Shown piece by piece: positions 5,003 to 50,930 of a stretch of 64,000 nucleotides of DNA; positions within the stretch are counted from its first letter, which is position 1; each line of letters begins with the position of its first letter. The notes under the pieces are model-generated. The model saw nothing but the letters and a program-made list of their open reading frames with translations. It was not told where the DNA came from and did no database searches. The stretch is taken from NCBI GenBank assembly GCA_002411005.1, contig DHQC01000013.1, forward strand, positions 68,586 to 132,585, in the 5' to 3' direction. The position numbers were made by a program, and so were the translations under genes. The DNA comes from Bacillales bacterium UBA5348 (GTDB lineage: Bacteria > Bacillota_I > Bacilli_A > RF39 > UBA660).

Positions 5003-5344
5003 GGGGCTGCTTGGTTTCGACGGGAACTATAAAGCTTAGATGGCAAGTCGTAGGCATGCGTTAAATCCATCAGTTTAATAACTGGAAATAATAAATTAGC
5101 ATTCGCTGCTTAATTAAGCATTAGCGAGCTCTTCTTATCGTTTTTCTCACGAAGGATATTAAGGGCACATTAAAGTGAGATATATCATTGTCTTGTTTGG
5201 GTGCAATGATGAAAATTACCAAACTAGTTAGTGATTGGTTGTTAATTTCTATAATTACTAATGAATTTAATAAATTAACTAAACTTGTAGAAGTCTCTGA
5301 AGTTATATTTTCGGACAGGGGTTCAATTCCCCTCAGCTCCACCA
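5003..5344 (+). ncRNA. ssrA: tmRNA (SsrA)
   Basis: 5' GGGGCTGCTTGGTTTCGACGGG and 3' GGACAGGGGTTCAATTCCCCTCAGCTCCACCA tRNA-like ends; internal tag reading frame ...GNNKLAFAA* (gga aat aat aaa tta gca ttc gct gct taa); immediately downstream of smpB. Confidence 0.9.
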
Positions 5345-43658: not shown

Positions 43659-43748
43659 ATGACACTCCTTTTTACATTATACAATTATAACATAAATAAT
43701 ATTAAAAAAAGGCAGAATATATGTTATAATTTATAGTAGGTGAATGAC

Positions 43749-44681
43749 ATGATTAGAAAAAAAGTTTTTAAAAATTTAGATGAACAAATCGAAATTTTAC
43801 AAAGCAAAGGCCTGACAATTAACGATATAGAAAAAACAAAAGAAATTCTTCTTCGAGAAAATTATTTTTTTATAAGTGGTTATCGTTACATTTTTATGAA
43901 ATCAGTGAAAAATAAGGTTTTCTTAGATGGAACAACATTTGAGGAATTATATGCTTTTTTTACGTTCGATCGCAGCTTACGAAACATATTTTTTAAACAT
44001 TTATTAGTCGTAGAGAATAATTTAAAATCAATTTTTAGTTATCAACTATCTAAACAATATGGTATAAGAGAAAAAGACTATTTAAAAGCTTCAAATTTTA
44101 CAAAAGATATAACGAAAGCAAGGCAGGTCGCTGATGTTCTTCACAAAATGAAGAGACAAGTCAGGGTTAATGGCTCACAGCATTCAGCAACAAGACATTA
44201 TATGATAAATTATGGATATATTCCACTATGGATATTAGTTAAAGTTTTATCTTTTGGTATAATCGGCGAACTATATTGTATTTTAAAACCCGAAGATCAA
44301 CAGGTAATAGCTGATTATTATGATTTAGATGTAGAAAGTTTTATGATATTTTTGCCATTGCTTTCTAATTGTAGAAATTTATGTGCACATGAAGATATTC
44401 TATTTGATCATCGCACCCAAAGATCAATCCTTGATAATGAATATCATTTAAAACTTAAAATACCAATGGAAAATGATGAATATATTTATGGGAAAAACGA
44501 TTTGTTTGCTTATATCCTTATTTTTAAATCAATGTTAAGAGAAGAGGAATTTAGACACTTAGTATATGAAGTAGATTATGAGATAGCTAGATTAGATGGT
44601 AAGGTATCAGTTATCCCTGTTGAGAAAATCTTAAACAGGATAGGATTTCCTAATAATTGGCGTGAAATTGTAGATTTGTAA
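43749..44681 (+). CDS. Abi_2 (AbiD/AbiF-like) abortive-infection family protein
   Basis: ~310 aa; LDEQIEILQSKGLTI, NYFFISGYRY, FDRSLRNIFFKHLLVVENNLKSIFSY match the Abi_2/Abi-alpha family N-terminal signature; AGGTGA RBS. Confidence 0.7.
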   Translation: MIRKKVFKNLDEQIEILQSKGLTINDIEKTKEILLRENYFFISGYRYIFMKSVKNKVFLDGTTFEELYAFFTFDRSLRNIFFKHLLVVENNLKSIFSYQLSKQYGIREKDYLKASNFTKDITKARQVADVLHKMKRQVRVNGSQHSATRHYMINYGYIPLWILVKVLSFGIIGELYCILKPEDQQVIADYYDLDVESFMIFLPLLSNCRNLCAHEDILFDHRTQRSILDNEYHLKLKIPMENDEYIYGKNDLFAYILIFKSMLREEEFRHLVYEVDYEIARLDGKVSVIPVEKILNRIGFPNNWREIVDL

Positions 44682-47475: not shown

Positions 47476-47549
47476 GCAGATGTGGTTCAATGGTAGAATG
47501 CCACCTTGCCAAGGTGGAGACGCGGGTCCGATTCCCGTCATTTGCTCCA
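47476..47549 (+). tRNA. tRNA-Gly (anticodon GCC)
   Basis: GCAGATGTGGTTCAATGGTAGAATGCCACCTTGCCAAGGTGGAGACGCGGGTCCGATTCCCGTCATTTGCTCCA; 7-bp acceptor stem, anticodon loop cTTGCCAa, encoded CCA. Confidence 0.85.
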
Positions 47550-47550
47550 A

Positions 47551-47590
47551 ACGAAAGCAAACCCTTATAAAATAAGGGTTTTTTATCTTG
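47551..47590 (+). terminator. rho-independent terminator after tRNA-Gly
   Basis: aaacccttataaaataagggtttttt. Confidence 0.7.
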
Positions 47591-47600
47591 AAATGTTGTT

Positions 47601-47620
47601 TAGGTACTAACTAGGTACTA
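47601..47620 (+). repeat. tandem 9-mer taggtacta-ac-taggtacta (left-end subterminal repeat)
   Basis: seen directly; the same dimer recurs at 49993-50012. Confidence 0.7.
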
Positions 47621-47895
47621 TGTTCATCTTATTTCACTATATTTTTTGGTTGTATTTAACTATTTTTAAAGCAAATGTATGTATTTTGCACCACCTCATA
47701 TAATATGATGATTTAAATTTTCAAACCCCCTATTTTGCACCGAATGATGAATAGTCCTTAGAATACTAGACTTTTTTATTTTGTATGTTATATTTATGCT
47801 AAAAATTTGTAAAATAATCTTTAATTGATAATAATAAGGGTAGTATAAAACTACTCTTTAATAAAAATAAGAATAGAATAAGGTAGGTGAATAGA

Positions 47896-48453
47896 ATGAC
47901 AAACATTTTTAAATTAATTTACAAGAGGCTGAAAAAAATGTATAATAGAAATACAAGTATGCGTGAGGTGATAGGTGTGTTTGATGTTAAAGAATTAGCT
48001 TGTTACATAAAAAAACAATATTTTGACTTTGCAAGCGAGGAAATATCTCCAATTAAATTACAAAAATCTCTATATTTTCTTTTTGCATATTGGGGTGGCT
48101 TTGTTCAAAAAGGTATAAATAACCCAGATTTTTCTGAAGAAAAGTTTTCTGAGAACGATAGGTATTTATATAATGCGAGAATAGAAGCTTGGATTTATGG
48201 ACCAGTTATTCCAGATGTATATCGAGATATCAACCTAGATAGCCATTGTAATGATAATTTGTTTGATACTCGAGATGATATAAAAAAATATGTAGATGAT
48301 TTTTTGAGAGATACGTTTGAAGTGAGTGACTTTAAATTAGTAGAATCTGCGCATAATGATGAGGCCTGGAAAAGCAAATTTTCTCTTTCTAATGAATTTC
48401 ACAATAGAGAAATTGATAAAGAGGAACTTATAAACGAGTATGCACTTAAGTAA
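47896..48453 (+). CDS. Panacea-domain (DUF4065) protein, putative PanA/SocA-like antitoxin
   Basis: FDVKELACYIKK...ISPIKLQKSLYFLFAYWGG...IEAWIYGPVIPDVYRD matches the Panacea domain core (KLQKLLY ... AW..GPV...VY); ATG at 47896 after AGGTAGGTG. Confidence 0.65.
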   Translation: MTNIFKLIYKRLKKMYNRNTSMREVIGVFDVKELACYIKKQYFDFASEEISPIKLQKSLYFLFAYWGGFVQKGINNPDFSEEKFSENDRYLYNARIEAWIYGPVIPDVYRDINLDSHCNDNLFDTRDDIKKYVDDFLRDTFEVSDFKLVESAHNDEAWKSKFSLSNEFHNREIDKEELINEYALK

Positions 48454-48979
48454 TAGTATTTATTCTCATCAAAATCGCACAAAATTCGGTGGTCCCATTC
48501 AAGAAAGATTCGCTGAAAAAACAAAGAAGATAGACTTTACTTTCGCTTTGAGTTCGTTCAGATACCCAGAGGAATTTTTTACAAACTTTTCCAAAAGTGA
48601 TAATTTTGGTAGATTTCAGAAATTGAAGGGAATATATTTGGAAAACGAAGAGGGAAAGGACATATTAAAAAAATTTAGAAGACGCTATGTTGAAAATATT
48701 GATAAACATTATTTTGATAGAATAATAAGAATACTAAATTACCATAATAGATTTAATATCACAGAAGAGCAAGTAGTAAATATGTTAAAATGTAAATATA
48801 GGGAAGATCCTCGGATACAATTATTCATTATGAGCGATAATGGCGTTTCGAAAGTATATTTAGTTGATCTACACCACTTGGGATTTCCAGGAGATGCAGA
48901 TGGTCGTCGCTATGATATGAATGATATGTATAGAAAGTTTGAAAATGCAGAATACAATATTTCACATATATTAGATTAG
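48440..48979 (+). CDS. hypothetical protein overlapping the Panacea gene by 14 nt; candidate cognate toxin
   Basis: 179 aa, no TM, no recognisable domain; possible Rx4H (RILNYH) motif; translationally coupled arrangement. Confidence 0.4.
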   Translation: MHLSNSIYSHQNRTKFGGPIQERFAEKTKKIDFTFALSSFRYPEEFFTNFSKSDNFGRFQKLKGIYLENEEGKDILKKFRRRYVENIDKHYFDRIIRILNYHNRFNITEEQVVNMLKCKYREDPRIQLFIMSDNGVSKVYLVDLHHLGFPGDADGRRYDMNDMYRKFENAEYNISHILD

Positions 48980-49010
48980 ATATAATTAGTTAGCTAGTAT
49001 TTTTATTGTT

Positions 49011-49040
49011 GACAAGCATAAAATATAGAGTATAATAAGT
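49011..49040 (+). promoter_or_regulatory. near-consensus sigma-A promoter inside the islet
   Basis: ttgaca-17-tataat; a second extended -10 (tgtggtataat) ~49122-49134; AT-rich direct repeats (atgaaaatgta / atgtaaaaatgtg) lie between them. Confidence 0.5.
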
Positions 49041-49161: not shown

Positions 49162-49326
49162 ATGAAAGAAAAAAAGGACTTTGTTTCTTTACGCCTAGAA
49201 AAAGAAGAATTGGCTAAGAAACTACGTCCAAATATTAAAAAAGTAGATGAAAGTGATCCTCAACTTAGTATTATGCTAAAATCATTTGAGAAAGATGACT
49301 GCAAAGAATATAGAAAGCTTTTGTAG
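49162..49326 (+). CDS. small (54 aa) putative ribbon-helix-helix-like protein, candidate antitoxin
   Basis: MKEKKDFVSLRLEKEELAKKL...; GGGAGGAA RBS; not in the ORF track (under 60 aa); directly upstream of the MazF-like ORF. Confidence 0.4.
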   Translation: MKEKKDFVSLRLEKEELAKKLRPNIKKVDESDPQLSIMLKSFEKDDCKEYRKLL

Positions 49327-49336
49327 GAGGTTGTTT

Positions 49337-49810
49337 ATGCAAGTTGGACAAGTTATATTGATTAATAATATTGATAAAATAGGTGGCGCGCCACAAAAGT
49401 CTTCTATAAGACCTGCCATAATTAGGGAAATTTATGCACCAAATTTGATAGATGTTAGATTAGTATCAACTATCTATGTTAATGGCGATGTAAAAGCACA
49501 AAGTCTTGAAGAAGCCAGTGAAGCTATAAAAAATAATTTAAGAGGGCTTTTCCCACACTGCGAGCAATATATTATTATCACACCAGAGGAAAAAGGAATT
49601 TTGAACTTTAGTTATGTTTATGGAAATATGTATACCGACATAATAAACACCGATAAAACAGAAATTACTATTCTTAAAGATAGAAAAACAAATGTTCCTT
49701 TTGTAATAAGTAGCGATGTTAAGGCCAAGATAGAAGAAAAAGAAATAGAAGCAATGATAAAGGATATAATAAAGCAATATGATATAGAGTACAAAAAAAT
49801 AAACAGATAG
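49337..49810 (+). CDS. MazF/PemK-like (CcdB/MazF fold) protein with an internal insertion, candidate endoribonuclease toxin
   Basis: MQVGQVILINNIDKIGGAPQKSSIRPAIIREIY...IDVRLVST aligns with MazF's [29 protein letters not shown]...AIVAAIT. The C-terminus SSDVKAKIEEKEIEAMI aligns with MazF's DEMMDKVDEAL. AGGAGG RBS before the ATG at 49337. Confidence 0.5.
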   Translation: MQVGQVILINNIDKIGGAPQKSSIRPAIIREIYAPNLIDVRLVSTIYVNGDVKAQSLEEASEAIKNNLRGLFPHCEQYIIITPEEKGILNFSYVYGNMYTDIINTDKTEITILKDRKTNVPFVISSDVKAKIEEKEIEAMIKDIIKQYDIEYKKINR

Positions 49811-49979: not shown

Positions 49980-49992
49980 TTTCTAGTTCTTT

Positions 49993-50012
49993 TAGGTACT
50001 ATTTAGGTACTA
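49993..50012 (+). repeat. tandem 9-mer taggtacta-tt-taggtacta (right-end subterminal repeat)
   Basis: copy of the motif at 47601-47620, same orientation. Confidence 0.7.
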
Positions 50013-50116
50013 AAAAACAAGATTGATGCGTGTTGGTAAATTATAACGAGTAAGCAAACCTTTTAAAATCAACGTGTTAATGGTGGATAGTAGTGCGAAA
50101 TGATGTATCTTTAAAA

Positions 50117-50175
50117 TCCCGTCATTTGCTCCAAATGAAAGTAAGCCCTTATAAAATAAGGCTTTTTTATATTTG
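50117..50175 (+). repeat. direct repeat of the tRNA-Gly 3' end + terminator (attR-like)
   Basis: tcccgtcatttgctccaaatgaaagtaagcccttataaaataaggcttttttat versus tcccgtcatttgctccaaacgaaagcaaacccttataaaataagggttttttat at 47533. Confidence 0.75.
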
Positions 50176-50195: not shown

Positions 50196-50930
50196 TTGGG
50201 AGGAAAGAGTATAAATCATACTTTTTTAAAAACGAAAGATTATATTTCCATAGAAGCTACTTTTGTTGGTGTTGATTTTTGTTCAATAAATGATTATGGT
50301 GAGACATGTACCCTTATATATCAATATATTGTTGATGGTGAGCAATATTTTGTAAGTACAGATTATAAGACGGGAATAATTCGTGAAATTGGGATAACCA
50401 AAACAGTAAAATATAATCTGAATAATCCTGCTGAATCAGTAGTTGGTGAATTCAATTCCGCTGGCGCATTATTATTTGTCGGATTTATGTTTGTTGTTGT
50501 TCCCTTAATTATGTTGGTTGATAGTCGTTTGCGTTTTAATTCCTCTAATGCTAAAAAAGATGTCATTAAAAATAAAGTGTTTCGTGTTTTTATTGGACTG
50601 GTGTTTACGATATTGGGTGGTGTTACTTATTATAGTATTTGTGCTAATGGAGATTCTCTATCTATTATTGTGGCATTTCAAAATGCAGGTTTCTGGTTGA
50701 TAATTCTGCTAATGTTTATAGTTGTTGGTTTACTTATGACATTTGGAAGTGTCTTTTCAAAAGGTAAATCTATAAAATTTAACTCTTATGATGTTACAAC
50801 ACCAGATTATGTGTCATTACCTCAGTCAATTTTTCTTGAGAAGATAATTCGTTTTTTGCCACTTTTTAATTACGTTATGCTGTTGATTGTAAGTATGATT
50901 TTCTTGATAATCCTTGTTATGTTGGTTTAG
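50196..50930 (+). CDS. membrane protein with a DUF3592-like beta-rich domain
   Basis: soluble region ATFVGVDFCS..YGETCTLIYQYIVDGEQYFVSTDY...TKTVKYNLNNP then 4 TM helices; TTG start is uncertain. Confidence 0.4.
   Translation: MGGKSINHTFLKTKDYISIEATFVGVDFCSINDYGETCTLIYQYIVDGEQYFVSTDYKTGIIREIGITKTVKYNLNNPAESVVGEFNSAGALLFVGFMFVVVPLIMLVDSRLRFNSSNAKKDVIKNKVFRVFIGLVFTILGGVTYYSICANGDSLSIIVAFQNAGFWLIILLMFIVVGLLMTFGSVFSKGKSIKFNSYDVTTPDYVSLPQSIFLEKIIRFLPLFNYVMLLIVSMIFLIILVMLV

Follow-up and report, generated by a model that had tools for sequence, protein, structure and literature searches.

A stretch of 64,000 nucleotides from contig DHQC01000013.1 of Bacillales bacterium UBA5348 (hereafter the window) carries two overlapping genes, panA and panT, which encode a stand-alone Panacea (DUF4065) protein and a conserved partner distantly related to the catalogued, putative toxin cluster T16. 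Judged by comparison with related loci, the pair is genuine, widely conserved and toxin-antitoxin (TA)-like, and it is usually carried by temperate phages. The best explanation as a whole, to which we assign a probability of about 0.5, is a phage-type PanAT (PanA-PanT) module with a RelE-like, mRNA-cleaving PanT that would be directly neutralised by PanA. The narrower claim that the pair is a real TA-like PanAT module is regarded as probable.

The product of the first open reading frame (ORF) had initially been annotated as having a Panacea core, and the elements KLQKSLYFLFAYW, AWIYGPV and VY were all found in its translation. A search with the Pfam model PF13274, proposed as a check, gave a match over profile positions 11 to 113 of 113 (E 9.8e-5) whose score of 23.7 bits narrowly missed the gathering cut-off of 25.7 bits. 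On sequence grounds, the assignment as a Panacea/PanA-type protein is based not on this direct score but on the following: (i) phrog_1281 from PHROGs matched the protein (7e-19); (ii) the NCBIfam model SocA_antitoxin matched it locally at residues 86-112 (E 2.3e-8, 33.9 bits; equivalog cut-off 190); (iii) PF13274 was present in nearly all of the best 120 of its 488 homologues, which showed 45-57% identity (E 1e-41 to 1e-53). The conserved core elements LQKxLYxLFA (invariant as LQK..Y..FA), EAWxYGPV..Y and DFxLVxxHxDxxW are common to window PanA, Orf24 of Lactococcus phage bIL312 and gp24 of Brochothrix phage BL3. PanA of the window is of the stand-alone type, having no extra N-terminal domain. 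When the PanA profile was run against the PDB, spurious matches to designed TIM proteins were all that was returned.

A Shine-Dalgarno-like sequence, AGGTAGGTG (47881-47889), is located 6 nucleotides 5' of ATG 47896, the start of the longest panA reading. PanA homologues are approximately 160 residues long and could be aligned only from residue 27 of the 185-residue reading, and the conserved part of the gene starts near 47974. Alternative starts are present at 47938, 47959 and 47977, of which the gene caller picked 47938. Because of these observations and of a promoter-like site within the 5' part of the reading frame (Table 1), the true start may be ATG 47959 or GTG 47977 rather than 47896. 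The choice of start leaves the finding unaffected.

The overlap of the first stop codon with the second start, noted in the initial annotation, was confirmed by the coordinates. Overlaps of 14-35 nucleotides, always of length 3k+2, were found in the genome and metagenome loci, and spacings from -38 to +3 nucleotides in viral contigs. A genome scan with PanA yielded 23 loci, and in 21 of them the next ORF downstream was a PanT homologue; the remaining two comprised a contig end and an archaeal PanA of 28% identity. Conversely, each of six PanT relatives that were looked up was preceded by an overlapping gene for 160-166 residues. PF13274 was detected in five of these upstream products, and the sixth was matched to window PanA by phmmer (6.2e-48). 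Among viral contigs of IMG/VR, 62 loci with PanA relatives were found, 52 of which could be assessed (close PanA and enough downstream sequence); a match to the PanT-family hidden Markov model (HMM) lay directly downstream in 47 of the 52. At three further IMG/VR loci (L093-95) the partner joined the family by jackhmmer, which recovered 91 matches in total, one per locus, with no off-targets. The pairing is conserved whichever of the two genes is taken as the query. The overlapping pair was met again in independent genomes and viral contigs, dozens in all, which places the arrangement far beyond chance; by these comparisons, PanT is a conserved, translationally overlapping partner of PanA. With this overlap and with dozens of independent genome, metagenome and viral loci that differ in their flanking genes, the arrangement of the pair agrees with that used to recognise PanAT loci by Kurata et al. 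2022 (PMC8832971).

The window's own branch of the family comprises uncultured Clostridia, Bacilli and Endomicrobia as well as gut viral contigs. The most distant PanAs (L098-L102) were paired with different proteins, in keeping with the exchange of partners known from Panacea. In locus L004 (4497-5026) the toxin homologue is interrupted by an in-frame stop and a frameshift and the upstream panA is intact. Such asymmetry would be predicted if harm came from the product of the downstream gene; L004 is either a decaying module or an assembly error of a metagenome-assembled genome. In two viral contigs, L089 and L090 (3001-3228), PanA is shortened to approximately 80 residues with no toxin homologue downstream, so that the module seems to have decayed there.

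In agreement with the initial annotation, which had recognised no domain in the 179-residue protein, PanT was without a match in Pfam, PHROGs, NCBIfam and PADLOC. Neither PanT alone nor its family profile found anything meaningful among PDB sequences (no profile match at E <=10). A Pfam scan of 44 family members at E <=5 gave one-off noise, with no ParE_toxin, HigB, YafQ or YoeB-type model among the matches. A word-indexed homologue search retrieved only PanT itself, and eight proteins when the profile was used as query. An exhaustive HMMER search yielded 47 cluster representatives at E <=1e-3, mostly 172-204 residues long and 26-37% identical. In an alignment of 69 sequences, S39, D143 and H146 were invariant, F47, N49, R94, I98, K117, L141, L147 and Y164 were conserved to at least 94%, and T48 and K119 to 83%. 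The resulting signature is S-x7-FTNF ... R-x3-I ... K-x-K ... L-I-D-L-Y-H-L ... Y. By this conservation, panT is a real gene and represents a sizeable family absent from domain libraries.

The suggestion that PanT might be an undescribed toxin family did not hold, as the family includes a protein listed as T16 and its predicted fold is also known among PanA partners. A PanA search of GenBank phages led to orf24/orf25 of bIL312, gp24/gp25 of BL3 and a Streptococcus satellite phage. BL3 and bIL312 were connected to PanT via this PanA search and the family HMM; tblastn of PanT against GenBank phages gave no match. Kurata et al. 2022 (PMC8832971) record Orf24 (NP_076824) and Orf25 (NP_076825) of bIL312 in their Dataset S1 as PanA and PanT of putative toxin cluster T16 (pT17), with the antitoxin first, a gap of -35 and the labels 'noNTD' and 'notest'. 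The 12 published members of T16 come from Bacilli, a single phage and a single genome of Pasteurellaceae, and the only HHpred annotation of the cluster, a hit of 51.5% on an entry for the 50S ribosomal subunit, is not useful (PMC8832971). No match to T16 accessions was found in the NetFlax supplements. Orf24 is 36% identical to window PanA. Against the PanT-family HMM, Orf25 scored 32.6 bits (E 3.9e-9 among 927 ORFs) over a full-length alignment, and it carries the hallmark motifs S..FTNF, LID..HL.IP and Y...CIS.I. In jackhmmer, Orf25 (1.8e-30) and window PanT (2.6e-16) were united in one family. As Orf25 fits the HMM and joins the same jackhmmer family, window PanT is placed, by sequence homology checked for this one of the 12 listed members, as a distant member of T16. 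Hence the pair type has been known since 2022, and the window pair adds a member to it. Of the initial proposal, a PanA-type protein with a conserved, uncharacterised partner remained, whereas its claims of a novel family and of a hint at HEPN RNases were lost, to the T16 listing and to the lack of conservation of RILNYH, respectively.

Elsewhere, the module lies in a recurring order of holin/endolysin, panA, panT, a few small genes and integrase, as seen in BL3, L029/L030, L037 and L039. Of ten additional upstream neighbours of the module, nine were cell-wall hydrolases (GH25, Amidase_2+CW_7, CHAP, VanY, M15, C39-like+SH3). PanAT modules of the window's kind are typical temperate-phage cargo and common in phages of Clostridia and Bacilli. 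In L026-L028 (1-5137) the module follows genes for an AIPR protein and a 1296-residue protein without domain match, and a PBECR3 gene is nearby; a PBECR3-domain gene also occurs beside the module in L037 (5987-6403). The AIPR and PBECR3 genes adjoining the module suggest a defence island at L026-L028.

The structure of PanT was predicted by AlphaFold. With a 44-sequence alignment the model reached a pLDDT (predicted local distance difference test) of 87.9 and a pTM (predicted template modelling score) of 0.82, whereas the model made from the single sequence was unusable (pLDDT 35). In the former, residues 1-25 are disordered and followed by short strands, a helix (57-70), a strand (79-83) and a long helix (89-103), then by strands 116-120, 127-133 and 136-143 and helices 160-167 and 174-178. 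This predicted structure appears to resemble RelE/ParE toxins, including RelE3 of M. jannaschii (3BPQ), HP0892 of H. pylori, HigB and YafQ of E. coli, RelE of T. thermophilus and ParE1 of M. tuberculosis. With Foldseek, one strong match was found in BFVD, namely D7RWK8 (208 residues, E 1.4e-5, 193 columns). This is probably BL3 gp25, judged by equal length, the accession being unconfirmed. Foldseek returned no significant match in the PDB, and when the family was compared with RelE and YafQ of E. coli by hhalign, the probability was 0.1%. On the strength of the model, a RelE/ParE-like fold of PanT is considered likely.

Several of the conserved residues can be located in the model. The first core strand (strand 2) carries K117-x-K119, D143 and H146 are found where the last strand ends, the next helix contains Y164, and R94 belongs to the second of the long helices. 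We take these to be the positions of the catalytic Lys, Arg, His, Tyr and Asp residues of RelE, YoeB, HigB and YafQ. The catalytic residues of RelE are K52, K54, R81 and Y87, and HigB has a D-Y-H motif; in the RNase branch of the superfamily, Lys, Arg, His, Tyr and Glu residues surround the cleft. The data show the gene structure, the conservation of the pair, its family membership, the predicted fold and the phage context; toxicity, direct neutralisation, RNase chemistry and biological role of the pair are what we infer in the following mechanism. The two genes would be co-transcribed and translationally coupled. PanT would act as a growth-arresting toxin with a RelE/ParE-like core of two helices on a three- to four-stranded sheet, extended by an N-terminal part of approximately 50 residues and by C-terminal helices, and it would cleave mRNA in a ribosome-dependent manner. 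PanA would neutralise PanT through direct binding (type II), a step proposed because published PanA-PanT pairs form complexes, with stand-alone Panacea neutralising directly via its core (PMC8832971; PMC10440598). When PanT is freed, for example because a phage infects the cell or the element is lost, translation would stop. In the window, the module may be temperate-phage cargo of Firmicutes stranded in an integrase-less islet of 2.6 kb at a tRNA-Gly gene. The assignment of PanT as a ribosome-dependent mRNA endonuclease, which is based on the placement of these conserved residues, is tentative, at slightly less than even odds. Speculatively, and by analogy with the Bartonella pair, PanA may dock on the N-terminus of PanT, which is conserved and disordered.

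Two other readings of the pair, both unlikely, were weighed against this mechanism. First, the RelE-like core might be a scaffold only, with a different activity residing in family-specific elements (the S39/FTN motif, the N-terminal extension), for example on a different RNA target, on a translation factor or in nucleotide chemistry. This would be in line with S39, F47 and N49 being among the most strictly conserved residues and lying outside the canonical catalytic positions of RelE, with PanT being twice the size of RelE, and with the absence of any sequence-level link to RelE/ParE families and of a significant Foldseek match in the PDB. Second, the genes might form a non-toxic phage accessory pair acting after the lysis genes, for example in lysis timing, superinfection control or anti-defence. 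The place of the module directly after the endolysin is strikingly constant, many Panacea proteins carry a mere 'phage-associated' annotation, and of the PanT candidates assayed in E. coli, one third were non-toxic. However, the strict antitoxin-first overlap and the toxin-type predicted fold suit a TA module, as does the agreement of the pair with the criteria that Kurata et al. applied to PanATs. Moreover, the module is also found outside prophages, namely next to defence genes (AIPR/PBECR3) and, in the window, in an islet that has no integrase, and in L004 it is the downstream gene that decayed while panA is intact.

A further reading is a PanAT module whose ParE-like toxin would poison DNA gyrase instead of cleaving mRNA. 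ParE-type gyrase poisons are not known to have such a conserved constellation of residues, and for this reason the mRNA endonuclease is preferred and the poison is judged quite unlikely. A mechanism of the SocAB type (type VI), in which PanA delivers the toxin to a protease instead of sequestering it, is very unlikely. SocA is the founding Panacea protein and works as a ClpXP adaptor, and its NCBIfam model did find a local match in window PanA. SocB corresponds to cluster T10 (Kurata et al. 2022, PMC8832971). Against this reading, the match fell far under the equivalog cut-off, the partner in the window is unrelated to SocB, and every PanAT pair examined experimentally in PMC8832971 is reported to give a stable complex of type II. 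No sign of an adaptor mode like that of SocA was seen in the window data. Finally, the initial hint that PanT is a HEPN-type RNase using RILNYH (Rx4H, residues 97-102) can be dismissed, because the motif exists in the translation but R97 and H102 are not conserved (N is commonest in both columns, at 26% and 23%), the predicted model is alpha/beta whereas HEPN is all-alpha, and HEPN domain matches were not obtained.

Table 1. Features of the panA-panT locus and the surrounding islet (window coordinates).
Feature	Position	Strand	Basis or remark
tRNA-Gly (GCC)	47476..47549	+	ARAGORN; Rfam tRNA 65.9 bits; 3' end forms left repeat copy
Left direct repeat, att-like	47531..47590	+	Repeat search, alignment; last ~19 nt of tRNA-Gly plus terminator hairpin (47559-47581)
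Degenerate third repeat copy inside islet	47726..47782	+	Alignment; 63% identity
panA, stand-alone Panacea (DUF4065) putative antitoxin	47896..48453	+	Longest reading, 185 aa; frame open from 47887
Promoter-like TTTACA-17-TATAAT	47918..47946	+	Consensus match only (11/12); would serve shorter panA from 47959/47977
panA stop / panT start overlap	48440..48453	+	14 nt, frames offset; panA stop codon 48451-48453, panT ATG 48440
panT candidate, T16-type family	48440..48979	+	179 aa; predicted RelE/ParE-like fold; family HMM and conservation
Sigma-70 perfect consensus TTGACA-16-TATAAT	49009..49036	+	Precedes other islet ORFs
Orphan islet ORF (54 aa)	49162..49326	+	ORF call
Orphan islet ORF (157-174 aa)	49337/49286..49810	+	ORF call
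Right direct repeat, att-like	50115..50175	+	91% identical to 47533-47589; far border of islet

The window pair is located between two direct repeats of 57-59 nucleotides, the left of which includes the 3' end of tRNA-Gly. The approximately 2.6 kb between them hold panA, panT and two orphan ORFs and no ORF of integrase size. The smaller orphan ORF and the 157-residue form of the larger one had no relatives in the libraries or fetched loci save identical copies of the same contig. Rfam detected nothing on the islet other than the tRNA. As two pattern scans of metagenome contigs found no empty tRNA-Gly site, insertion of the islet is derived from the repeats alone. Most simply, the segment is what is left of a prophage at its lysin-distal end, or else a mobilisable islet of small size, and the degenerate third repeat copy may date from an earlier insertion. 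At 47599-47620, just inside the left repeat, and at 49991-50012, approximately 100 nucleotides to the left of the right repeat, the doubled motif TTTAGGTACTA-(ACT/TTT)-AGGTACTA is present, to which a recombinase or regulator may bind. Directly outside the right repeat lies a gene for a 244-residue multi-pass membrane protein (50196-50930), which matches DUF3592 weakly (E 3.6e-4). An AbiD/Abi_2 abortive-infection gene (43740-44681; Pfam 1.7e-38, PADLOC AbiD 7e-55) is found 3 kb upstream of the islet among housekeeping genes. The window also contains an ordinary tmRNA gene (5003-5344) with the tag peptide GNNKLAFAA.

With this analysis, a 'hypothetical' protein lacking a Pfam domain was placed in a large, coherent family tightly tied to Panacea antitoxins. 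PanT cluster T16 received its first fold assignment, RelE/ParE-like by prediction, together with candidate catalytic residues, and thereby becomes testable in bIL312 of Lactococcus lactis IL1403 or in Brochothrix phage BL3. The picture of TA biology is unchanged; the pair is one more case of Panacea promiscuity and of RelE/ParE-fold diversity. A bolder and rather unlikely proposal is that T16-type PanTs constitute an unrecognised, double-sized branch of RelE/ParE present right after the endolysin in a large proportion of the temperate phages that infect gut Firmicutes. Together with PanA they might then form a prophage switch for abortive infection or superinfection exclusion, with the N-terminal extension (S39, FTN and the disordered first 25 residues) as PanA-binding or trigger-sensing element; alternatively, they might have new catalysis on a RelE-like scaffold.

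With SocAB of Caulobacter, the window pair shares the Panacea domain of the antitoxin, as reflected in the local SocA match, and differs in the distance of window PanA from the SocA equivalog and in its toxin. Window PanT has no detectable sequence similarity to toxins of the RelE/ParE superfamily and roughly double their length. It differs from them in additional helices at the C-terminus, in an N-terminal extension whose S39 and FTN motif are conserved, and in its antitoxin, which is a Panacea protein instead of RelB, HigA, DinJ or ParD. PanATs with RelE/ParE-like toxins have been described as T14 (HigB-2-like), T28 and T59 (ParE_toxin) (Kurata et al. 2022, PMC8832971). The window pair resembles them in having the Panacea antitoxin first and a partner of RelE/ParE fold, which is predicted in the window. 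In contrast to the window family, which is in no profile library tried, those toxins are seen by HHpred/CDD profiles, with up to 99.7%, and several of their PanAs have helix-turn-helix domains, which window PanA lacks. The closest counterpart is the T16 pair of bIL312. Although the kinship is very distant and single-sequence searches barely connect the two, both pairs agree in the families of both proteins, in gene order, in overlap (-35 in bIL312, -14 in the window) and in a stand-alone PanA, and both are of phage-borne types.
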